From Rhodospirillales bacterium (GTDB lineage: Bacteria; Pseudomonadota; Alphaproteobacteria; Bin95), in contig JAYQLI010000038.1 in assembly GCA_038143065.1 (NCBI GenBank), positions 32,622 through 96,621 of the forward strand: 64,000 nucleotides of DNA. The letters are read 5' to 3'. Shown in pieces: positions 169 to 63,350 of the stretch. The notes beneath the pieces are model-generated. The model was not told the origin of the DNA, did not search any database, and saw only the letters and a program-made list of their open reading frames with translations. The number at the start of each line of letters is the position of its first letter. Positions within the stretch are counted from its first letter, which is position 1. The position numbers and the translations under genes were made by a program.

Positions 169-1399
169 TTAATGCGATGAACGTATCTGGATGACAGCGC
201 CCGGAGCATCGATGGCTCGTTCGCAATATTCTGCCCAAGCAGCCATTAACTTTCGGCGTTTTTCCATCAGCGTTCCTCTTGCATATGCGGCTTCGGCCTT
301 ATCCTTGAGTTGATGCGCAAGCGCGTGCTCAATGACCTCTCGGGAATGCTGTCGTTTCGCCAGCCCAGTCTCGGAAAGTACTTCTGAAACCATGAGTCGT
401 GACTGGCACTTCCATGCGCTTCAGAACTGCACCAAGTGTCATGTCAGACAAAACCCCACCTTGCGCTGCTTTAAACACGATTTCATTACCTTTTCCCTGT
501 GGGATTTCCGTCAGAATTTCGACCGCACGATCTGAGAGCGGGACGCGATGCTCTTTACGCGCTTTCATTCGTTCCGCGGGAATTACCCATTCGCGCTTTT
601 TCAGATCAAATTCTTGCCACGTCGCTCCACGAACTTCTCCTGAACGTGCAGATGTCAGAATGAGGAACTCTAGAGCAATTGCCGCTGTCCCTTTGCGCTC
701 TCTCAGTCGTTTAATGAATGCTTCAATTTCATGATACGGCAGTGCTGGGTGATGTTTCACGACGCGGATCTTAGAAATGGAAGGTAGCGCGTTCTCTAAA
801 TTCCCCTGCCATCGAGCAGGATTTTCGCCATCTCGGTGTCCATGTACCTTAGCCCAGTCTAAAACCTTTTCTATCCGGCCACGTGTGCGTTTAGCCGTCT
901 CGGGCGTTTTGTGCCAAATAGGCTTAAGAACCTCTAAGACATGGGCCAATTCGATGTCGTCCACTGCGAGATTACCCAAGACTGGCAGAGCATGTGTTCG
1001 AAGGGTATTTTCCCATTGTTGCCGATGTTTGGCATTGCCCCATTCGGATTGCTTGTCTTCCAGAAACTGACGACAGGCATCCACAAAAAGTAAGCGCTTG
1101 CGTTGCGCTGCTCGCAACTCATCGTTACGGACTTTGCGTTCCTCGATCGGATCTATCCCAGCTGCAATCTTGCTTCGTAGTTGCCGAGCAGCTTCGCGTG
1201 CCATTGCTAGCGTAACTCCTGGATAACCACCTAAGCCGATATCTCTAACCTTATCTGCGATCTTAACCCGCAATATCCAAGAGCGCGCTCGCCCTCGGAT
1301 TTGTAATCCAAGTCCTGGAACGACGCCGACAGCGTTAAATCCAGTTTTGTTAAGGCGCGAAACTTCGAGCGCAGACAGTTCTTTTGCGATCTTTGGCAT
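169..1399 (-). CDS. P4-type (IntA/CP4-57-like) tyrosine integrase with N-terminal arm-binding domain, copy 1; one apparent frameshift near 335-345
   Basis: ORFs 329..1399 plus 169..393. Motifs: GLGLQIR..SWILR..IGLGGYP.VTLAMARE (arm domain), ARSGEVRGATWQE, RMKARKEHRVPLS, HGFRSTFRDW, IEHALAH..AYARG. Confidence 0.95.
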
Positions 1400-1572
1400 T
1401 ACCCAATATCCTACCCATTATAAAAATTGAGATTGGCTGAGACGCCGTGATACAGTATGTGACAGCTTTTATTTAATATAACACATAAAAACAGTAACTT
1501 AAATATTAAATAAAGTGTTCATATGACTACACATGAGCTTATATATACTCAGATAAGTTAGATGCAGGGGGA

Positions 1573-1586
1573 CACCTCCTCCGCCA
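1573..1586 (+). mobile_element. att core: tRNA-Ser-like 3' end fragment (CACCTCCTCCGCCA), boundary between tandem islands
   Basis: Ends in the G discriminator plus CCA typical of tRNA-Ser. Lies ~175 bp upstream of the integrase start. Repeated directly at 61600-61612 and inverted at 3015-3028. Confidence 0.8.
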
Positions 1587-1694
1587 CTTAGCCCAATACC
1601 AACAGGGCCAGACCTAACAAGTAAGCATCAGATAATACTCAGCTTTTAAACTAGGCGCTCATTGTGCCGCATCTGATTACTGACCATTATGCAG
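1573..1694 (+). repeat. Left arm of ~120 bp inverted repeat enclosing the DUF6538 integrase
   Basis: Matches the reverse complement of 2908-3028 apart from one indel, one short divergent block and one substitution. Perfect run of 59 nt at 1618-1676. Confidence 0.95.
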
Positions 1695-2915
1695 ACCAAA
1701 TTACTGACCAATCGAATCACTTACACGTTTATTCGGGGCGGCTATTACTATTTTTCCCGACGAGTTCCCGCTGATTTGCAGGGCCATTATCGCTACCCTC
1801 GTGTCGTCCAAGGGCTTCATACATCCTCCCCACAAAAAGCTCGGGTTCGGGCGAGTATTGAAGCAGCTAAGCTTGATGCCTACTGGAGCCAAATGCGCCG
1901 AGCTAGGGTCTGATGTCCTTCGAGGTTTTGTCACTCGTTAAGGGGCTACAGATGCCCCAAAGAGAGTTAACGACGGCGGATACTTCTAGTCCTGCTGCAA
2001 TTGTTGGTCAGCCTGAAGATGCACCAACATTACTCGATGCTTTGCAATTATATTTAGGTCAAAGGGTAAGGGTCGCCCGAAAACATTTCGGTTAGCTGCA
2101 GAACGAGTGTGCAGATACGTTATTGAACTGGCAGTGGGAATAAGCCTTTGACGTCATATACTCGTAGCGATGCTCTAACATTGAGGGATTGGCTTGTAGA
2201 TCGTGGCTTAACTGGCTCCAGCGTCACTCGTAACTTCTCCTATGTGAAAGCGATCATAAATTTTGCCCTTTCAGAATTTGCTTTGGATGCCCGAAAACCA
2301 TTCATTGGTGTGTATCATGATCGAACAGCAGGGGTATCCACTCGCAAACCAATTCCTGTTGCTAATATTTTCAAAGTACAGCAGGAAAATGCAGGACGAT
2401 AGATGATGATATGCGCTGGTTGGTCGCCCTGATTTCGGACACTGGTATGCGGCTTGCTGAAGGGGCAGGGTTGTTTAAAGTCTGATCTTCGAAAATTAGA
2501 CACTGATATCCTTGCGTCCGTATCCAAAAGCACAATTGGCGAAACCTAAAGACCGCCAGCAGTGAACGTATCATACCCCTTTGCGGTCAAGTTTTTATGG
2601 GCTGCTGAACGAATAGTTGGATCAGACCCAAACTCTCAGTTTGCTTTTCCAAGATATAATCAGCAGGAAACTACGAACGCCAATTCCGCCAGTGCTGCAT
2701 TAAACAAATGGCTTAAGCAATATGTACCAATCGGATGTACGTTGCACAGTTTCAGACACTCGATGCGGGACATTTTTCGATCAGTTCAATGTCCATCCGA
2801 CATTGCGGACCAAGTAGGTGGTTGGACAACCGATGGAGTAGGGCAGGGGTATGGCTCAGGTTATCCGCTCGATGTGCTGCATGGGGGAGTGGATGGAAAA
2901 GGCAATCCTGCATAA
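1689..2915 (+). CDS. Tyrosine recombinase/integrase with DUF6538-like N-terminus (frameshifted in several places)
   Basis: N-term YYYFSRRVPADLQGHY; SAM-like LRDWLVDRGLTGSSVTRNF; DTGMRLAEGAGL, LKTASSERIIP in alternate frames; C-term TLHSFRHSMRD..IADQVGGW..GVGQGYG. Confidence 0.9.
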
Positions 2916-3028
2916 TGGTCAGTACTCAGATGCGGCACAATGAGCGCCTAGTTTAAAAGCTGAGTATTATCTGATGCTTACTTGGGGAGTGGCCCTGTTG
3001 GTATTGGGCTAGAGTGGCGGAGGAGGTG
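2908..3028 (-). repeat. Right arm of the inverted repeat, including an inverted tRNA-end att core at 3015-3028
   Basis: CTGCATAATGGTCAGT...TGGCGGAGGAGGTG is the reverse complement of 1573-1694. Confidence 0.95.
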
Positions 3029-3478
3029 GGATGTCGACGCCCCCCGCTCTCCGTCAGCAAGCAGCTAACACTCTGATATTATTGATAGCAGCATTATGAG
3101 TTCATAGCAATGAGGCGCAAAATTGTCAGTAATTTGGTCTTGTAACGCAGGATTACCCCTGCGAGTGCCACCCCACCCCTAGGGTTATCGTAGACAGGCC
3201 TGATCCAAGATTAGGATTTGAGTATCGTCAACTGGCTGCATCAGGCTATTTCATTGGGACTTGACGGTTTTGCCTGTGCGGTAGGGTGACTGGTCCTGTG
3301 GCATCGTGCTGGCGGCTACTAAACCGATATATGATACTACTGTTGGGTGTTGATATTCCCAGGATATCGTTATCTTAGCATTAGCGAGGGCTAGGCATGG
3401 GCCACAGGGGTGTACGAGGTAAGAATATATGACCTCTGCCAGTGATTAGCCATGTAAGCCTGTAAACCACTTTAGGCT

Positions 3479-3583
3479 AAGTTTCGGGGTTAGATGACCG
3501 CCTTGTTGATCCTTAAAGGGTCAATGGTTCCTATAGAGATATATAGGAACCTGACCCATTAACGGTATTACTCCCCGAAACTT
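3479..3583. other. Long imperfect palindrome/hairpin
   Basis: AAGTTTCGGGG(3479-3489)/CCCCGAAACTT(3573-3583); GGGTCA/TGACCC; GGTTCCTATA(3526-3535)/TATAGGAACC(3542-3551). Confidence 0.75.
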
Positions 3584-3909
3584 CAGGCTCAGGCCCGATA
3601 GAGATACTCAACTGGTTTTCGTGATCACTTGAAGCTTTGCTGATGGTACGAACCGCATATCTACGTTGATAAATCCATTTAAAAGGCTCGACGGAGGACT
3701 AGCCAAAATGACTTTGGCCTATTAATAATGAGTTTCGGCCGAGTGCAATAGTCAGTCAGAATTTCGTAATCATGATTATCTCATATCCTAGAATGAAACA
3801 GCTTAAAGGTGTGTTTTTTGGTGCGATCAGATAATTATGGAACAAAAAATCCAGAAAAATGTAATGACTAAATATCCTCGCTGCAGGATTAAATCTTTGT
3901 ACAAGTATC

Positions 3910-4320
3910 ATGGTTTTATTGTCGATGCTAACAGCCGATATCATCAATCGCATGGAGACACGTGGATACACAAGCCATCGAAACATCTACAACATTGTTC
4001 TTGTGCGCTTTGATTGCCGGGATGAAAGATGGATCGAAACACAGAATTGTAATAAACAAATCAGGCGTTTGCTGATTGAAAATATGAAAATTTTAAACAA
4101 AGTTTTTGGGGTTGCAAAAGTTTTGACACGAATACTTTGATGTTGATGGTGACGGCGAATTAAGCGCTTCAGAACGCAATAATGCCATAAGTAAGATACT
4201 TGAGAAGATCGATACCGATGGTGATGGTCAGTTAAGTGCAGATGAACGGAACACTGCTAGAAGCATTGCCGTACGTGAAAAAATTCGTGAAAGGCTCTCC
4301 AACTGGTGTAACAATTAATG
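3910..4320 (+). CDS. Small EF-hand domain protein (start and end uncertain, frameshifted)
   Basis: Frame from 4136 reads FDVDGDGELSASE..KIDTDGDGQLSADE, two canonical DxDGDGxLSxxE loops. Confidence 0.6.
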
Positions 4321-5533: not shown

Positions 5534-6361
5534 GGCAATCAGATTAAACCGCCTTGCCTGATTGCGATAGGAACAAAAAGCTTTTTAGCCATGCTAATTC
5601 TTTATCTTTCCGTTATTCAAAACCAGCCCTGAATTATCAACTTGCAGTTATGCTGTAACCCTAGGGGGTTCCCACCTCTCACTGAGAAATGTGAAGACCT
5701 TCTGCATGAACGCGGTGTCGATGTGAGCTATGGATCTGTTCGGTACTGGTGGCATCATTTAATATCTCAGTTTAGCAAGCCAGATCCAAGACGGAGAGGG
5801 AATGCAGTCTAGTAAATGGAAGTGGCACCTGGATGAAGTCTTTGTGAAGATAAACGGGGAAAGACATTACCTGGCGTGCAGTCGATCGAAGGTGAGGTGC
5901 TCGAAATATGTAATAAAAGAAGACAAAAAGCAGCTTTAAAGTTCATGAAGAAAGCCATGCGGTGCTTTAGATCGCAATGAGATCTGTGGAGATAAGCTTG
6001 GGTCTTACGGGGTGCAGCAGCAAAGAGAACTGGGCTGTTCAGAAAAGCAGGTTACAAAGCGATGGGCAAATAACAGAGTTGAGAATTCACACTTACCGTT
6101 TCGACGACGCGAAAAGGCCATGCTTCGATTTAGACGCATGCACAGTCTACAGAAGTTCGCTTCAATCCATGCCTCGTTTCACAATCTATTCAACTCGCAA
6201 AGGTTACTCTCAAAACGCAGTACATTTAAACTTAACCGTGACGCTGCTCTCACCGAGTGGCCGTCTGTAGTGATCCAACAGAATATACTCATCAATGAAT
6301 TTTGGATGCCAGTTCTTGCCCAAGCAAAATCGAACAGAGTGCTCAATTTTTTGACAGCCCC
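5534..6361 (+). mobile_element. IS6-family insertion sequence, copy A (degenerate or frameshifted transposase)
   Basis: WHLDEVFVKING.RHYLWRAVD and WANNRVENSHLPFRRREKAMLRFRRMHSLQKF. Degenerate terminal IRs GGCAATCAGATTAA and TTTTTGACAGCCCC. Confidence 0.85.
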
Positions 6362-6406
6362 AATCCGACCACTCCGCTGATGAGATTTTCGCCAGTAGAC
6401 GAGTTA

Positions 6407-7375
6407 CTAGGGGTCTTTTCTGGGCATGACAGTCTCAAGTGTTTCGAGGGCATGCTGAAATTGCTCCTCTTTGATACGGCGAAGTGTTTCAGCGTCTTCG
6501 ACACCGATAGAGTGGTTTATGGTCTGGCCTGCCGTCATGCGCCCGAGCCGGGGTAGGTCGGCAGAGATCACCGTGGCGATCTTGGGGTATCCGCCAGTGG
6601 TCTGGCGGTCGGCGAGCAAGATGATCGGCTGCCCGGTTCCAGTCACCTGAATGGAGCCTGCAACGATGCCATCGGAGGCGATGTTGTAAACCCTCAGCAT
6701 GCGACAGGGTGGCGCCATCCAATTGCAGGCCCATGCGGTTAGACCTTGCCGTGACCTTGTATCGGGAGGTGAGGAAAGTCCGGAGCGCCGGGGTGTGAAA
6801 TAGTCGTCCTGTGGCCCGAGGATGACGCGGACAGGGCCGGGACATTGGCCAGCACGCTTTGATCTGAGCGCCGTTCCGCACCGGTGGTCGGGTTCTCGCC
6901 GATGGCAGCGCGTCGCCTTTGACAAGCGCTCGGCCCTGCACGCCGCCCATTTTGCCGGGCAGATAAGTCGAGAGGCCGCCCAATTCGGGGACGATGGCAA
7001 AGCTGCCCTGGACGCCAAGGTAGCAGACGCCCGTGTCGCGGGTCGCGCCGATGCGGAACCGGGTGCCGGGTGACAGGAGGGCGCTTTGACCTGTGGGGAT
7101 CGTGGGTCGCGGTCCCGCTGATAATCTCGATTGGGACCTGGGTTCCGGTAAGCGCCACCCGTGCCGGTCCGCCTGTCACCTGCAGGGTGGGGCCCACCAT
7201 CCGGATTTCCAGTGCTGCCGCGTTTGGCGGATTGCCGACCAGGGCGTTGGCAAGACGCAGGGCGTCGATGTCGAGCGCGCCCGAAACCGGTACGCCGAGC
7301 GCCTGGTGCCGAAACGGCCGGCGTCCTGGACCGTGGTCAGTCCTGGGTGGTCGACAATGAGCCGCGCGCCGTCAC
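6407..7375 (-). CDS. pxpC: 5-oxoprolinase subunit C / allophanate hydrolase subunit 2 family (KipA)
   Basis: TTVQDAGRFG, SNRMGLQLDG, SDGIVAGSIQVTGTGQPIILLADRQTTGGYPKIATVI. Confidence 0.85.
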
Positions 7376-8098
7376 AGCAGGAACTCTCTTGTGCGGCGAA
7401 CCCGCCGGTGCGCAGGCGGGCTTCGATTTGATGGTAGTCGTCCAGCCCGACCTCGTGGAACTGCACCAGATCGCCCGGAGACAGAAGCGCCGGTTGTTGA
7501 GCAGTCTTGTCGAAAAGCAACACCGGCGTGCGCCCGATGATGTGCCAGCCGGTGGGGTTGGAATTGGGGTAGATCACGGTTTTGCCGGTGGCGGTCAGGA
7601 CCGCGCCTGCCGGGACGTTGGGCACTGGGTTTTCGCGGCGCGGCAGTGCCATGTTTTCCGGCAGGTCGCCCAGATAGGGCTGGCCCGGAGCAAAGCCGAG
7701 CATATAGACGGTCTGCACGGTGCTGGTCATGGCCCTGACGATGTCGCGCGGCGCGCGTTTTGCATAATCGGCAACGGTTTCGAGATCCGGCGCAAAACCT
7801 TCGGCCTCGACACAGATGGGAAACGACCAGCGCGCCGCCAGCGCCGCTGGCGGCCGCCCGCCGGCAGCAGCGGCAATCGCCTTTTTCAAGGCGGCCTGAG
7901 TTGTGGTCAGCGGGTCATAATGCACCAGAGCGACAGATAGGTCGGCACGACCTCGATCGGCTCCAAGTGGGGTCGGCTGCGTTGATGTTGGCGCAGAGTT
8001 GCAGGACGCGGGCGCTGGTTTCGGGGGCGACATCGGTTCCCAGCACCACCCGTGAGACCGGTATCGCCGCTTGAAAGAAACTCCATATCCACCCTCAT
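7372..8098 (-). CDS. pxpB: 5-oxoprolinase subunit B (KipI family)
   Basis: VYMLGFAPGQPYLG..LPRRENP..VPAGAV..IYP.SNPTGWHIIGRTP..LL.PGD.V.F. Confidence 0.85.
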
Positions 8099-8115
8099 AA
8101 ACGACTGCCGCCGGG

Positions 8116-8886
8116 TCAGTTGAGCGCCTGCGCCATCGGTTTGATCTCAATCCCAGACGCTTCAAGCGCGCGTCGAACTTCGGCAGCTGCTAAGTGCGCG
8201 GGCTGTCACCATGAACGCAGATGCTGTCGATGGCCACCTCAATGCGTCTGCCCGACAGGCTTTCAATGGCGCCGTCCTGAACGAAACGCACCATGCGCTC
8301 GGCGGCTTCCCGAGGGTCTTCGATCATCGCTCCCGGTGTTCCGCGTCGAACGAGCATGGCGTTGTCGTCATATCCTGTCAGCAAAGATTTCGCGGGCCAC
8401 TTTCAGGCCAACTCTTCACCGGCGCGTTCAAGTTCGCTGTTGGGCAGGACCAGAAAGATCAGCTCGGGCGCGACGCGCTTGACCGCACGGGCGGCCGCCA
8501 TAGCAAGATCCTTGTCTACGCAGGACATGTTTCCAAGCGCGCCGTGAATCTTGTAATGGGTGACCTCGGCACCGCAGGCGCGCGCGCCATGCCCTGGATG
8601 GCACCGGTGGGACCTGATAGATCAGCATTTTTTCGATCTCGACACATCCTGAACCACGATCCGGCGGCGGCCAAATCCCCAGAGATCCGTTGAAACCGGG
8701 ATGTGCCTGGATCCCGACGCCGTTGGCCTTGGCCATCTCGATGGTGCGGTGCATGACCACCGGATCGCCGCCGTAGCCCGCGAGACGTTGGCCGAAGAGA
8801 TCACCTTGAGGATCTCTTCGTCATTGCCGATCGTGTAGGCGCCGAAGCTTTCGCCCATGTCGCAGTTCAGGATCGATACTTGCCAT
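8116..8886 (-). CDS. pxpA: 5-oxoprolinase subunit A (LamB/YcsF family)
   Basis: DLNCDMGESFGAYTIGND, AHPGF.DLWGFGRR, DSICVHGDSP. Confidence 0.88.
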
Positions 8887-57109: not shown

Positions 57110-59343
57110 CTAACGGGGATGGGGACCGTCACTCTCTTGCGGCAACAGCGCAATATTGTTCCCAGCAACTGAAGTGCCTACGCCGTGTTCATTCATATAC
57201 CGACCTTTGACATCAGCCCAAGGCACTTGGTCCACTATTCCAGAAAACAGATTTGAGGCAGCCATTGCCATCGTCTCAGGGGTCCACTTTTTGCGTCCGT
57301 TTTGAGCCTGCGCAAACCGTGCGTCCAAGTTTACAGGTACAGGTACCCCAACACCGTCTCGGTTTGCAAGTATGACTGGCTCAATCCTGAACCAGTTTGC
57401 CTTACTGTCATGCGGAGCAAAGTTCATCTTGCCCACATCCATGCGAATATAATCCCTGACGGAGAATCAGGATGTCGCCTTTCTGCAGTCTTTTTGCCCA
57501 TTCGAGCGATGGTAACAGCTGATAGCTCACTCCTTAATCGATGAATCCCCCGCGCCCCGATTCACATCCCCAGCATGAGCCTCAGTGTCCCCACCAATCT
57601 TTTTGGTATGGTGGGCAATATTAATCGCAATACCGTGATTTCCAGCAAGCCTTTTAAAAATGCTGACAATTTGATCCATTGCATTGTTGTCATTTTCAGG
57701 CGCTGTATGTGTTGAGATGAACGGATCAACGAACAAAGCTTCAATTTTCCTCTCTGCTATAAAAGTCTCAATTTTATCAAGATCAGGCCCACGCGATACG
57801 CGATTATCAACGTGGTAAGCAAAGCGGATAGGTCGTAAATAGCCACTGATCGTGTAAAGACTTCCCTCGAGTTCAGCCGGATCAATGGCGATTGAACGTT
57901 CGCCTTGACACACGCCGTTGTACAATTCATTTTCGGTCATCCTTCATTATTGACGAGCAACACATTGCATCTACGGACCGGTCCGAGTCTTAACAAGTCG
58001 CGACCAGTGGCAACGCTCACCGCAGCTATAAGTTGTAACATTGATTTAGCAACGCCACCGGGACCAACAATCAAGCTTATGTTCCCTCCAGAAGGAGCCT
58101 TGGAATTATCCAGTCTCTCTTGGGAATGGATTTTACATCCTCCAAAAGCTGACTGTGATAGGTCATCAGATCAAAGTCGCCATGAAGATCATTTTCGGAT
58201 TTCGCTTGGCCTTGATTCAATGCGGTTGAAGCTTTTAGATCGCCAAAGTCTTGACCAGGATTGTCAAATTCACGCGGGGACTTTGTTTCTCCCAAAATGG
58301 CGTCAATATTTGCGTTTGCGGAGGGGACGTCCCAACCGTAATCCTCGGCCATAAGAAAGATTTTCTCATGCGAAGTTATGGTCGGTGTAAAGCTTTCCCA
58401 GCTAGCCTCAGCATCATCTAAATCAAACTTTTCGGACTTTTTACTCCACTCTAGCCAAGCCCGCTTTGCTTCATCTCCTCCATCATCGTCCAGCGTTTTT
58501 GCAGCGTGCCCAAGTTTGATCCACAACTTTCGGTCATCGCTAGGAATAGCGTCAAAAGCAGACTTAATCTGAGCAAGTAGAAATGGTGTTTTCAATATTT
58601 GTGTGGCCGTTGCAAAGGGATTTTCTGAAGGATTGCCAGAGCGACAAGCCGAGATATGCGCGGTGACGTCACCCAAATTCGCTACAAGATTCCCTCCGAG
58701 AAGTGTGAAGCTCTACTGTGACCGGAAGGTTTCACACGCGTGTTGCTATCCGGCTCTTTGACAAGATTTCATCAACTTTTAGAGGCGCTCGCGCAGAAAT
58801 TTCCACGATCTTGCTCCTTTCAACGGGTTGTAGTTCGGTTGTTCTGGGCGATATACGGACGCGTCAAATTTGATTGCACTGTTGCTAAATTCCGTTTCGA
58901 TCTTGGTCTCGATCAGCGCCTGAAACGAGTCTCCCAGTTTGATGCGTTCATCCCGACTTACTTCACGATCAAGTTGGATTATCAAACGCATGCAGGGGCA
59001 CTTCAGGAGTGCTGGAGGCAGTTTCATAAGCATAGGCGCAATATTGCCCAATTTCGCGATGAACCGACTGCTGAACTTTCTCCCCCTCCATGTAGTCGAT
59101 ATCCATCGAAAGGAACGCGCAGGGCTCAGCATGGTTGGCTAGCTTGTAATTGGCATCACGCGGGTATTTCTCGGTATCGTTGTGGGGGCCAAAGGCCATT
59201 GGACCACAAACGTATAGCTCCTTTTTGCGGCCGCGGTTGGTTTCCAAGTGCTCTACTAAACCGCCGAAATCATCCACAACCAGTTGCTTGGGAGTGTTAT
59301 CGTATTTGTTGCGCCCTGCAGAAAAACGAATAAGGGTGCTCAT
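57110..59343 (-). CDS. Primase-helicase fusion: AEP-like N-terminus + PriCT-2 + AAA_25 (RepA-like) helicase, frameshifted
   Basis: MDID..YETASSTPE.P.MRLII.LDREV, FDASV; IPSDDRKLWIKLG.A..W.EWS.KSEKFD (PriCT-2); IVGPGGVAKS Walker A; FVDPF..ENDN..M..HHTKK. Confidence 0.85.
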
Positions 59344-59346
59344 TGT

Positions 59347-59631
59347 TTACTCTGCAGCCAGTTTGCCGACCAAATCGATATCCTCTGCCGACCAAACCTG
59401 AACGTCCCCCCAACTTGTTTGGAGCTGGAAAGTTCCCTGCCGAAATCATGCGGTACATAGTCGACTTGCTTATGGGAACCAATCGAGCACCATTTGGATC
59501 TTTTTCAGTTAGGAGACTTGAGGTCTTGATCGTCATCCAGCGTTTGAAACGTGAATTGTTTCTCTGGGTCCAAGAGTTGGAGAGAGCGCTTGGCCGGTTT
59601 AAGTCTGGGATCATTGGCGCGTTTTTGACAT
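59347..59631 (-). CDS. AlpA-family regulator/excisionase (second)
   Basis: LVPISKSTMYRMISAGNFPAPNKLGGRS..W. Confidence 0.8.
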
Positions 59632-59728
59632 GCTGTCGTTACTTTGTCGTTCCTTGAGAGGCAACACAAATTTAGGCCGACAGACGACGTCAAACTTGGT
59701 TACTGAATGTTCTTGTTTCTGTTAGGGC

Positions 59729-59963
59729 TTAGTTGCCGTTGAGATACGCGCGGACATCTCCAACGCGCCATCGGCTTGGAGTCTTGCCTATACGCAGGGG
59801 CTTCACGAAGTAGCCCAGTTGTATGTCACGGTAGATTGAAGATCGACTTCGTGATGCGAGTGGAGCTTACCATTTTTAGGTCAACCAGAGCGTTATTTGG
59901 AAGTGCCTCAAAAGTTTGAATACAATCCAATTGCACACCCAATTTATTTAGGTTTTGGTCCAT
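59729..59963 (-). CDS. AlpA-family regulator/excisionase (first; not in ORF track)
   Basis: Hand translation across frameshifts: MDQN..FEALPNNALVDLKMVS..SRSRSSIYRDIQ.G.FVKPLRIG..SRWRVGDVRAYL. GGAGG RBS. Confidence 0.7.
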
Positions 59964-60097
59964 TTTCATGGCCTCCAAGTTATTTCAACTGTGGTAAAGC
60001 AACATAACTAAGCTCCAGCAAATCTGGTCAGCTTGGCTACTTCCGAGACCGGTAGAAATGGGTATGCAACAAAGCGCCCATGCATGTGCCTGTCTTG

Positions 60098-60127
60098 AGT
60101 GTGTCAGATAGACCCATTGCATGTCAA
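60098..60127 (-). promoter_or_regulatory. Putative sigma70 promoter for the alpA-alpA-primase operon
   Basis: TTGACA-N18-CACACT, conserved with 65-94. Confidence 0.45.
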
Positions 60128-60203
60128 TATGATGTATATAAAATTTTTGGACTACTAAATATTGTCACTTAGACGGACGTTTACGATAAAAACTGTCGCT
60201 TTA

Positions 60204-61432
60204 TTAAGATGAACGTATTTGGATTACAGCTCTGGCATCGGAGGCCCGTTCGCAATATTCTGCCCAAGCAGCCATTAATCTCCGCCGTTTTTCCATAAGC
60301 GTTCCTCTTGCATATGCAGCTTCGGCCTTATCCTTGAGTTGATGCGCGAGCGCATGCTCGATGACCTCTCTTGGGAACGCTGTCGTTTCACCCGCCCAGT
60401 CTCGGAAAGTGCTTCTAAAGCCATGAGTCGTGACTGGCACTTCCATGCGCTTCAGAACTGCACCGGGAGTGTCATGTCTGACAAAACCCCACCTCGCACT
60501 GCTTTAAACACGATTTCATCACCTTGGCCCTTTGGGATTTCCGTAAGAATTTCGACCGCGCGATCTGATAGCGGGACGCGATGCTCTTTACGCGCTTTCA
60601 TACGTTCTGCGGGAATTACCCATTCACGCTTTTTCAGATCAAATTCTTGCCACGTCGCTCCACGAACTTCTCCTGATCGTGCCGATGTCAGAATGAGGAA
60701 CTCTAGAGCAATTGCCGCTATACCGTTGCGTGCTCGCAGTTGCTTAATAAAGTCAGCTATCTCAGGGTAGGGCAGAGCTGGGTGGTGTTTCACGACGCGG
60801 ATCTTTGAAATGGAAGGTAGCACGTTTTCTAAATTACACTGCCATCGTGCAGGGTTATCGCCATCTCGGTGTCCATGTACCTTAGCCCAGTCTAAAACCT
60901 TTTCTATCCGGCCGCGTGTGCGTTTAGCCGTCTCGGGCGTCTTGTGCCAAATAGGCTTAAGAACCTCCAAGACATGGGCCAATTCGATGTCGTCCACTGC
61001 GAGATTACCCAAGACTGGCAGAGCATGGATTCGAAGAGTATTTTCCCATTGTTGCCGATGTTTGGCATTGCCCCATTCGGATTGCTTGTCTTCCAGAAAC
61101 TGACGACAGGCATCCACAAAAAGTAGGCGCCTTCGTTGCGCTGCTCTCAATTCATCGTTACGGACTTTGCGTTCCTGTATCGGATCGATCCCAGCTGCGA
61201 TCTTGCTTCGTAGTTGCCGAGCAGCTTCGCGCGCCATTGCCAGCGTAACTCCTGGATAACCACCTAAGCCGATATCTCTAACCTTATCGGCGATCTTAAC
61301 CCGCAAGATCCAAGAGCTTGCTCGCCCTCGGATTTGTAATCCAAGTCCTGGAACCACGCCGACAGCTTTAAATCCAGTTTTGTTAAGGCGCGAAACTTCA
61401 AGCGCAGACAGTTCTTTTGCGATCTTTGGCAT
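60204..61432 (-). CDS. P4-type tyrosine integrase, copy 2; apparent frameshift near 60465
   Basis: ORFs 60452..61432 plus 60204..60446. Same motifs as copy 1; about 20 substitutions in ~320 aa by hand count. Confidence 0.95.
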
Positions 61433-61599
61433 TACCCAATATCCTACCCATTATAAAGATTGAGATTAGCTGAGACGCCGTGGTGCAGTATGTGACAGAT
61501 TATCTGAAATATAACACTTAGTAACAGATACTTAAAGGCTAAACAAAGTGTTCATATGACTACATATGTTTACATATACTCAACGTTAGATGCAGGGGA

Positions 61600-61612
61600 C
61601 ACCTCTCCGCCA
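61600..61612 (+). mobile_element. att core: tRNA-Ser-like 3' end fragment (CACCTCTCCGCCA)
   Basis: Same context as 1573 (TTAGATGCAGGGGAC ACCTC(C)TCCGCCA). Similarity to the 1-1586 block stops essentially here. Confidence 0.8.
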
Positions 61613-61812
61613 CAATCTGAAAATGAAGCAATTTCAAGCACTTAGGTGATGGTGATAGCGTTATAGATTATTTTTATTACTATTTTTGCATGAGTTAGAA
61701 ATGATAGATAGAGCACACTCCGGTTTCGATTATGCGCTACCTACTTCAAATTTCGAAATGGTACTAATCTTTCCGATTTTTTCGTGGTTTCTGAATTTCA
61801 CGAGCTGCCCGA

Positions 61813-62625
61813 GGCACTGTCAGATTAAATCGCCTTGCCTGATTTCGTTAGGAACGTAGCTTTTTAGCCATGCCGAATTCTTTATCTTTCCGCTATTTCA
61901 AAACCAGCCCCGAGATTATCCAACTTTGCAGTTATGCTGTATGTGAGGTTCTGGCACTCACTGAGAAATGTAGAAGAACTCCTTCATGAACGAGGTGTGG
62001 ACGTAAGCTATGAGTCTGTTCGGTATTGGTGGCATAGATTTGGTTCCTTCGTCTGCAAGCCAGAGATCAAGAAGTGCAGAGCAGGGGCATGCAGTCCAGT
62101 AATTGAAATGGCACTCGATGAAGTCTTTGTGAAGATAAAAATGGTGAAAAGACATTACCTATGGCGTGCAGCGATCATGAAGGTGAGGTGTTAGAGTTAC
62201 GTCACCAAAAAGAGACAAAAAAGCAGCTTTAAAAGTTCATGAAGAAAAGCAATGCGCCGCTATGGAACACCAAACGAGACAGATATTTGGATCCTACTGT
62301 GTAGCAGCCGCCAGAACTGGCCGTTTGAGAAAGCAGGTTACCAAGCGATGCGGGCAAAAATAACAGAGTTGAGAATTCACATTTCTACTTCTTCGCCGAC
62401 GAGAAAGTGGCCATGCTTCGATTTAGGCGCATGCACAGTCTACATGTTCGCTCAACTATGCCTGTTTCACAATCTATTGAACCTGCAAAAGGTCACTCGA
62501 AACGTAGTACATTCAAGCTTGACCGTGACGCAGCTCTCACCGAGTGGCGTTCGTTAGTGAGCCCCATAGAGTATGAGCCATCATATGAATACTTCGATGC
62601 TTGGGATCGTTTGTCTGACAGGACC
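61813..62625 (+). mobile_element. IS6-family insertion sequence, copy C (813 bp)
   Basis: IRs GGCACTGTCAGATTAA / TTTGTCTGACAGGACC; LSLRNVEELLHERGVDVSYESVRYWW, LDEVFVKI, MRRYGTPNE. Confidence 0.88.
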
Positions 62626-63350
62626 TGCAGGTCCGCTTCATTAATACCCTAAATCTCGGCAGTGCTACTGTGGGGATCGGATATGTTTTCCAGTAAACAT
62701 GGACTCTGCCACCACTCTTAACACAGCGTTCGGCATCGGCATATAATCCCCGTTAGCTCTAACACATTCCAGGAACATGTAAGCGAGTTCCTCCGAGTAC
62801 CTGCACATTGGGTTGTCTTTAAGATCTAAGTCTAGCCAAACACAGTTAATCGTGGAAAGCGTCTCTGTCGTACGAGAATTACGCGACCATAGACGTGCTC
62901 ATACAGACATAAGCATCGAAACTGTCTTCATACATCAGATTAGACGCGCTGCGCTCATGTGCATCGTGGAGACACGGAAACTGGAATAGTGTCCTGCACC
63001 CATTGTATGTTGCGTTGAAGCCGTGGCTTGCGCACTTTGCGCCCCTCAGTTTGAGCTACTTCATATTCTTGCAACTCGCGTTCATAACGACGCCGATTGT
63101 CTTCTTTAGCTCTGCTTCAAATGCACCATCAATATCATTCTGAAGTCCAAGCGCATTGCTTCTTCTGCAATCGTTATGTAGTGATCTTGTTTTACGTCTT
63201 CAGAGCCATGCAGAAAATAGACATGGTCCGCAGACGTCCAAGACCCAGCAAATCGACGCACAAGCGTCTCGACCAATCCCAGTTAACACTCTCCTCTATC
63301 TTCTGCTACCCGCAGCAATACCTCGTCAATACGTTCCATCAAAAATGCCT
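62626..63350 (-). pseudogene. RepB-primase-like replication protein, truncated by IS6
   Basis: Hand translation: DAYVCMSTS..TINCVWLDLDLKD..MPMPNAV..SGGRVHVYWK. The reading frame runs into the IS6 right IR. Confidence 0.6.

Follow-up and report, generated by a model that had tools for sequence, protein, structure and literature searches.

An integrase gene that lies between two inverted copies of its own attachment-site sequence raises the question of what the second copy is and what it might do for the element that carries it. Such a gene is found in a stretch of 64,000 nucleotides (nt) from a Rhodospirillales bacterium (GenBank assembly GCA_038143065.1, contig JAYQLI010000038.1, positions 32,622 to 96,621), which is referred to here as the window and which forms the final 64 kb of the 96.6-kb contig C38 in an assembly of 4.63 Mb. 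The gene (int) encodes a tyrosine integrase with a DUF6538 domain, and a preliminary description of this DNA proposed that the integrase may flip its own gene between the two copies. Textbook islands possess one attachment site (attP), from which two direct repeats arise. DUF6538 islands very probably add, as a family trait, a second complete attP that is inverted directly behind int, and the repeat in the window is the core-plus-P' part of this second site. As an explanation of identity and mechanism together, an internal inverted attP that serves the integrase as a further recombination site is the best available overall and is considered probable.

The inverted repeat and the attachment site behind int

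Self-comparison of the window confirmed that 2908-3028 is the reverse complement of 1573-1694 (94% identity), with a longest perfect run of 59 nt (1618-1676). The two arms align in blocks of 16 nt (1573-1588/3013-3028, 100%), 22 nt (1589-1610/2990-3011, 100%) and 77 nt (1618-1694/2908-2984, 99%, with a single mismatch at about 1677), between which a 1-nt indel and a dissimilar stretch of 7 nt are found; metagenome contigs from four runs change position 3012 so that this indel disappears. A search of the whole genome with 1560-1720 returned only the query itself and the right arm (94%, E 1.5e-47), a match far past chance. Both arms start at their outer end with CACCTCCTCCGCCA, which resembles the 3' end of the genome's own tRNA-Sec (..CCCACTCTCCTCCGCCA), in keeping with the tRNA-end att core that had been proposed there. 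No tRNA gene was identified in the window by ARAGORN, only a Sec-like 3' end of 14-16 nt being present. The inner edges also fall where they had been placed, the left arm ending in ..TTATGCAG with the ATG of int at 1689 and the right arm opening with CTGCATAA at the last codons of the gene. The DUF6538 integrase (PF20172 match at 1689-1910) is alone between the arms, as had been noted; its gene, however, is split over frames.

In the nomenclature of the lambda attP, a core (O) is flanked by a P arm and a P' arm. The left arm of the window (1573-1694) consists of a core formed by the tRNA-Sec-like 3' end, CACCTCCTCCGCCA(CT) (1573-1588, forward strand), which is the junction common to a P4-type island and the DUF6538 element, and of a P' arm formed by the integrase leader up to ATGCAG (1589-1694, forward strand); the same anatomy is seen in a sister-species locus (L045). 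Sequence comparison shows the right arm (2908-3028, reverse strand) to be the inverted core plus P' arm. The right-hand copy extends functionally past 3028. An inverted P arm that would complete the inverted attP is placed at 3029-3300 (reverse strand, extent approximate) by analogy with ten of the eleven loci described below. Within it, 3029-3050 is still similar to a tRNA T-arm, as is the P side of attP in a sister species (G002), and 3161-3271 shares 71% identity with the P arm of a paralogue in the same genome (contig C5). An additional exact inverted match of 16 nt (1693-1708/3125-3140), absent from the preliminary description, was also identified; its right-hand copy (3125-3140, reverse strand) lies 97 nt past the right arm and is a candidate arm-type site of the P arm. 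Counterparts of this second short inverted match occur between the start of int and the P arm in 7/80 related loci. Two direct copies of ATTACTGAC (at 1676 and 1700; 1676-1708, forward strand) around the ATG are further candidate arm-type Int sites.

The nature of the second copy was addressed by comparison of 17 integrase loci from five genomes, of about 20 kb each, eleven of which carry an inverted arm. The sequence past the right arm is the reverse complement of the stretch just upstream of the distal direct copy of the tRNA 3' end in five of five loci, then in ten of the eleven; the remaining locus stops at a contig end. This mirrored P-arm stretch is 140 to more than 500 nt long, with 86-100% identity, and the core (14-23 nt) equals the tRNA 3' end, with long attP arms on either side. 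The internal copy is bounded as attP is, and not as attL, its outer side being P-arm sequence and not tRNA. The order of these islands is tRNA 5' part, O-P', int, inverted (P'-O-P), cargo of 1-12 kb, P-O and flank. Because the mirrored P arm stands beside a distal direct core in ten of the eleven loci, the ordinary attL and attR are kept and a complete inverted attP is present in addition, making these three-site islands. An island whose att ends are themselves inverted is not what is seen, since the relatives show direct attL/attR repeats (10/11) as well as the third site. Within the window's own genome, the C5 paralogue conforms to this layout, its P arm being matched in inverted orientation at a distance of 25 kb (503 nt, 94.6%), and a locus on contig C36 has a partial partner.

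Variations on this layout were observed among the same islands. One locus (L154, G053:C1:2127600-2147500) possesses two internal inverted attP copies, which are direct with respect to each other, differ in their P arms and are 92% and 100% identical to the attL arm; the cargo between them contains an exact direct duplication of 932 nt. As judged from its sequence, this pattern is what would be expected if another element had recombined at the internal site. Two further loci (L157 and L155) are tandem islands with one internal copy each. The arms that flank int differ less than the P arms (18/1030 positions, 1.7%, compared with 142/3622 positions, 3.9%; stratified z -2.7).

Other origins of the repeat were examined and rejected. 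An insertion sequence (IS) or transposon with terminal inverted repeats does not agree with arms that are unique in the genome and, in each paralogue, tied to a tRNA end, or with the presence of direct att repeats. Copying of attL by fold-back synthesis would have placed tRNA, and not a P arm, on the outer side of the internal copy. A fold-back during assembly, which the preliminary description had already discounted, does not account for arms that are 94% rather than 100% identical, nor for the recurrence of the layout in assemblies of other species.

Self-comparison of the window's genome yielded eleven close inverted pairs, seven of which enclose a DUF6538 integrase. Seven of its 23 DUF6538 loci possess such arms, of 57-150 nt and spaced 1150-1820 nt apart, and the outer arm ends are 3' ends of tRNA-Phe (contigs C5, C46 and C3), tRNA-Arg (C37) or, in the window, the Sec-like end. 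Among 37 genomes of the taxonomic family, the integrase is present in the window's genus only (5/9 other genomes). An open reading frame (ORF) of 385-388 amino acids directly follows tRNA-Sec in three of five sister genomes. In L045, the arms of 86 nt are 100% identical, the left one comprising the last 21 nt of the tRNA followed by 65 nt that reach the start codon, while the right one begins 10 nt past the stop codon; L044 possesses an intact integrase after tRNA-Sec, with arms of 100 nt at 95% identity.

Relatives were collected by a pattern scan with one genome per species, which found 297 loci, and the best 80 of these (L071-L150), which are not mutually independent, were used. They belong mostly to marine Alphaproteobacteria (SAR116/Puniceispirillales), with some Gammaproteobacteria, and 71 of the 80 integrase matches are free of stops; five other genomes carry two to nine DUF6538 domain matches each. 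An inverted copy (at least 30 nt) of the upstream region was identified behind the integrase in 50 of the 80 loci, and in 31 of the 45 loci that have at least 150 nt of upstream and at least 1000 nt of downstream sequence. The arms measure 30-153 nt, 20 of the 50 pairs being 100% identical, and the left arm usually opens right after the T-loop. The right arm starts 4-57 nt past the gene in 22 of the 50 loci and 333-2464 nt past it in the other 28; where it is distant, one or more variable genes (DUF2938, SnoaL-like or of unknown function) lie between int and the arm. The tRNAs upstream are Leu (15), Arg (14), Phe (9), Thr (8), Gly (6), Sec (3) and Asn (1).

The arms co-vary: for 39 of 46, no arm matches better than the partner from the same locus. 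Together with the retention of the right arm in 50 of the 80 loci and the intact orthologues at tRNA-Sec, this bears out the conservation among homologues that a working repeat had been expected to show. The second site co-evolves with the first and tracks changes of the tRNA target. Leaders that are 90-93% alike (75-78 nt) stand behind unlike tRNAs, namely Thr (L088 and L093), Leu (L091) and Phe (L090), with a fitting core in both attP copies, which on sequence grounds looks like target switching by core replacement.

For 16 of the 80 loci, the contig breaks off no more than 400 nt past the integrase match, and those that carry the repeat end 35-240 nt past the right arm, inside the repeated P arm. 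The repeated P arm is a likely cause of assembly breaks behind integrase genes, and such long inverted arms would explain why many assemblies stop close behind DUF6538 integrase genes. Island-finding tools that seek direct repeats alone will misjudge the borders of such islands.

Possible roles of the internal site

The anatomy, its conservation, the co-variation of the copies and the constant orientation of int were observed; we infer that Int may bind both attP copies and recombine at the internal one, to the benefit of the element. The predicted structure of the integrase (mean predicted local distance difference test score of 86) possesses three N-terminal strands (17-20, 23-29 and 42-46) and a long helix (52-77), followed by the core-binding and catalytic domains. 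The top Foldseek match is the Int of Tn1549; full-length lambda Int was aligned over 376-394 columns, but with a root-mean-square deviation of 14-17 Å. This model would be compatible with a putative arm-binding, heterobivalent lambda-like integrase. Such a protein would bind core and arm sites of both attP copies. Recombination of the internal attP with attL would then invert the int module, recombination with attR would invert the cargo, and recombination with the attP of another element would allow further cargo to dock. A second attP that is inverted and not direct would spare int from deletion, and may be the only stable way to hold two attP copies on one element, while no state would leave the tRNA truncated, its 3' end being present in each copy. 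That the internal attP is a live third recombination site of the integrase is given slightly less than an even chance. If it is active, inversion or docking reactions would be added to the gene reshuffling carried out by small cargo islands in streamlined ocean bacteria, and a single integrase would be supplied with two closely spaced inverted sites of natural origin.

Several observations weigh against this reading. A co-directional tRNA ends at most 250 nt upstream of int in 56 of the 70 loci with enough upstream sequence, and an opposite-strand tRNA within 1.5 kb behind int was found in only 1/44 loci (L082). A pattern scan of metagenomes for an abundant SAR116 element gave three contigs, of which two were informative and both co-linear, too few to bound the frequency of a flipped state. 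No recombination at the internal site was seen in the assemblies or in these two informative metagenome contigs. The internal site is dispensable for keeping the gene, as follows from the 14 of 45 well-flanked loci that have no repeat and from a right arm decayed to 36 nt beside the intact integrase of L043. The ATTACTGAC motif occurs eleven times in the window where 10.7 occurrences are expected, which is chance, so that only its clustering is notable, and exact arm-type 8-mers recur in the P arm in only 3/17 loci. The lower divergence of the int-flanking arms is reversed in two of eight informative loci. For the window itself, no partner of 3029-4200 was found elsewhere in the genome and hence no attR, the full layout of this copy being drawn by analogy. 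Pfam scans of the cargo, most proteins of which have no Pfam match, gave no clue to mobility.

In L082, the opposite-strand tRNA is a tRNA-Arg located 1055 nt behind int, and the repeat is confined to an inverted copy of a 20-nt core ahead of int. Among 209 pairs of related loci, one (L122/L150) showed inverted cargo, and its two members carry different integrases, so that the case is uninterpretable; there, a 1.3-kb segment located behind int in one SAR116 genome (L122, 1249-2537) is inverted ahead of a different int in the other (L150, 1661-2949; 91%).

It is doubtful, although it deserves to be kept in mind, that DUF6538 islands are a distinct and widespread three-site class with a working inverted attP, used either for flipping of the int and cargo modules, as a rare self-limiting toggle of int between its tRNA side and its P-arm side, or as a single-strand hairpin that gives strand-specific integration and a fixed orientation. 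In both cases the integrase would be exploiting its attachment site in a manner new for tyrosine integrases. A regulatory device that acts through RNA or protein binding is unlikely; on this explanation the repeat would direct antisense transcription into int, pair the leader and the 3' end of full-length transcripts for cleavage by RNase III (like lambda sib retroregulation) or provide a spare attP that titrates the Int produced by leaky read-through from the tRNA. It would agree with a left arm that reaches the start codon, with a right arm close behind the gene in the 22 loci mentioned above, with short motif repeats that bracket the ATG, as is the case where an integrase represses its own promoter within attL, and with the better conservation of the int-flanking arms compared with the P arms. 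Antisense transcription or RNA pairing would need the leader alone, however, and not the full P arm, the right arm stands far behind int with genes in between in 28 of the 50 loci, and a simple promoter scan found no sigma-70-like site inside the arms of the window.

A self-inverting phase switch, the function proposed in the preliminary description, is likewise unlikely. Int would often flip its own gene, which would thereby alternate between the tRNA side, where it receives read-through transcription, and the P-arm side, and this would determine which cells excise the island. Frequent flipping would be expected to leave int reversed beside the tRNA in assemblies. The inverted att copies do flank int exactly, as a substrate for inversion would, the arms are near-identical and co-vary, and each contains the tRNA 3' end, so that the tRNA would outlive a flip; a flipped state with high int expression could also be short-lived and hence missing from consensus assemblies. 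Of the marks of an inverton, the bounding inverted repeats are present, and both orientations among strains were not seen (1/44 reverse, compared with 56/70 co-directional); as for an active recombinase, the int of the window is broken and its orthologues are intact. The orientation is nearly constant and is therefore not read as that of a frequent phase switch, which is unproven; a flipped state must be rare or short-lived. Moreover, the repeat spans the whole attP, including a P arm of 140-600 nt that would be needless for a switch of int alone, and the int of the window is frame-broken and therefore cannot flip itself. What stands of the earlier proposal is a pair of inverted att sites around int that could serve as an inversion substrate; the flipped state itself was not encountered. 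A longer tRNA-like piece on the right was considered as a sign that the int of the window is itself flipped and was rejected, the P side of attP being T-arm-like in G002 as well.

A very unlikely explanation is that, when the element is transferred as a single-stranded circle, its two attP copies pair into a double-stranded attP stem that leaves int in the loop, so that one strand exchange followed by replication would integrate the element. The whole attP is inverted and highly complementary, both copies change with the target tRNA, and a strand-specific exchange would explain the single orientation. However, the cargo of the five islands scanned yielded no recognisable relaxase, rolling-circle Rep or phage genes, and linear single strands would be expected to break the chromosome; we know of no precedent for a loop of 1.2 kb with a stem of 300-700 bp. 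That the repeat has no function and arose through misassembly, or by chance as a local inverted duplication while the island decayed, has next to no probability: the contig is small with low ORF cover and its int is frame-broken, with indels relative to four of four metagenomes, but the arms differ in a manner unlike fold-back, both are covered by short metagenome contigs, and the layout occurs with intact genes in independent assemblies of other species, complete genomes included.

The closest described elements are tycheposons, marine cargo islands that target tRNAs by means of a tyrosine recombinase (Hackl et al., bioRxiv 10.1101/2020.12.28.424599). The parts of that account covered here describe small marine islands that adjoin a tRNA and are bordered by partial tRNA repeats; the tyrosine recombinase, located beside the tRNA, faces inwards, islands accumulate in tandem at one tRNA, and the cargo is mostly of unknown function. 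DUF6538 islands resemble them in these respects. They differ in that flanking partial tRNAs alone, and no internal inverted attP, are described in those parts. Furthermore, the five DUF6538 islands scanned showed no replication hallmark genes, and the likeness is one of layout. The relatives show the full tRNA at the int border (56/70) and the distal direct repeat (10/11) typical of such islands, and the window shows neither. In the cargo of the five islands, Pfam scans recognised no relaxase, rolling-circle Rep, phage, primase or helicase genes, and no excisionase was recognised.

In the Hin/hix system of Salmonella, an invertible segment contains the gene of its own recombinase, a serine invertase, between 26-bp sites, and both orientations are common. 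The enclosure of a recombinase gene by inverted copies of its own site is shared with the DUF6538 islands, the latter differing in their tyrosine integrase, their far longer arms (60-180 nt) with an added P arm and the strong predominance of one orientation. In CTX phage and integron attC systems, one strand exchange plus replication integrates DNA. Inverted copies of the recombinase site form one functional unit in both cases, with paired halves tens of bases apart compared with 1.2 kb here. The folded single-stranded sites concerned, the attP hairpin of CTX phage and the attC site, are treated in PMC3442271 and PMC4792948. For KplE1, the promoter of IntS is reported to lie inside attL (PMC2951348). 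Lambda-type integrases and IntS share with DUF6538 islands attP arms on both sides of the core, an int next to attL and repeated motifs over its start; such elements are not known to possess more than one attP each, whereas DUF6538 islands add a second complete inverted copy behind int. The pTN3 integrase is likewise a tyrosine integrase whose inverted tRNA-derived sites yield DNA inversion, in Thermococcales (PMC5495485), although the inversions reported are large, archaeal and chromosomal, between dispersed sites, with no built-in pair around int. Engineered cassette exchange between inverted attP sites resembles the islands in its paired inverted sites but is man-made.

DUF6538 is mentioned in no open-access or bioRxiv paper that was searched. 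Searches of open-access and bioRxiv papers likewise found no natural element described as carrying an internal inverted attP, and the DUF6538 layout is apparently undescribed so far.

The integrase of the window and its breaks

The DUF6538 tyrosine integrase of the window (1689-2943, forward strand) is spread over at least four frames, with pieces at 1689-1913, 1913-2095, 2148-2402 and 2562-2915 and a C-terminal frame that runs to 2943. Its first 74 codons (1689-1910) match DUF6538 (PF20172; E 1.4e-20, 73 bits with a cut-off of 27). At E 0.01, none of the pieces that follow matched Pfam, and no intact catalytic domain (R..HxxR..Y) was found in one frame; the last piece aligns with HSFRHS (HxxR) and the GYGSGY tyrosine region of intact orthologues.

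In each of the four marine or estuarine metagenome runs compared, which come from four studies, the contigs depart from the window sequence through indels at 2060, 2130, 2382, 2493, 2509 and 2882, and they agree with one another against it at eight indel places in 2060-3040, 3012 included. The breaks in the integrase are therefore specific to the window's assembly and reflect either real decay or low-coverage consensus errors. The metagenome pieces are Logan contigs (0.24-0.32 of words) of 110-570 nt, which cover both arms but leave 1910-2000 and 3639-3700 uncovered; none bridges an arm, so that orientation cannot be read from them.

All seven repeat-flanked DUF6538 genes of the window's genome are frame-broken. 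Open-frame cover is low on the small contigs (0.07-0.91; 0.45 on C38) compared with 0.80-0.88 along the 2.86-Mb chromosome. The assembly contains 51 small contigs, with 22 DUF6538 domain matches and 26 integrase matches, compared with zero to two integrase matches in sister genomes. The data suggest that the small contigs are binned, strain-variable island contigs of lower quality; the contamination of the assembly is 5.5%.

Surroundings of the window copy

A P4-type tyrosine integrase of the adjoining island (169-1399, reverse strand; Arm-DNA-bind_3, Phage_int_M and Phage_integrase) was identified to the left of the shared core, from which it points away. It is frame-broken, consisting of a piece of 356 amino acids (329-1399) and one of 74 amino acids (169-393). 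Its upstream region (1400-1572, reverse strand) is 85% identical to 61433-61613, upstream of a second P4-type copy. The latter belongs to a second P4-type island end (58077-61613, reverse strand), which comprises a PriCT-2 primase piece, an AlpA-like piece, a frame-broken integrase (60204-61432), the upstream region and a core-like CACCTCTCCGCCA. The two decayed P4-type ends with Sec-like cores and the DUF6538 element form a tandem island array. The window copy is a remnant of a DUF6538 island in which int is broken (or mis-assembled) and the tRNA has been replaced by a P4-type island end with the same Sec-like core. The genome's own selC locus is not occupied by the window element, and its flanks are not syntenic with those of the sister species.

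Further to the right, a stretch of 55-66% guanine plus cytosine (positions of about 6 to 13 kb) contains genes with carboxyltransferase domains (CT_A_B and CT_C_D). It begins beside a fragment of an IS240/IS6-type transposase, the features concerned being located at 5642-6380 and 6407-8165, and similar-looking ORFs are located at about 62 kb (61934-62652).

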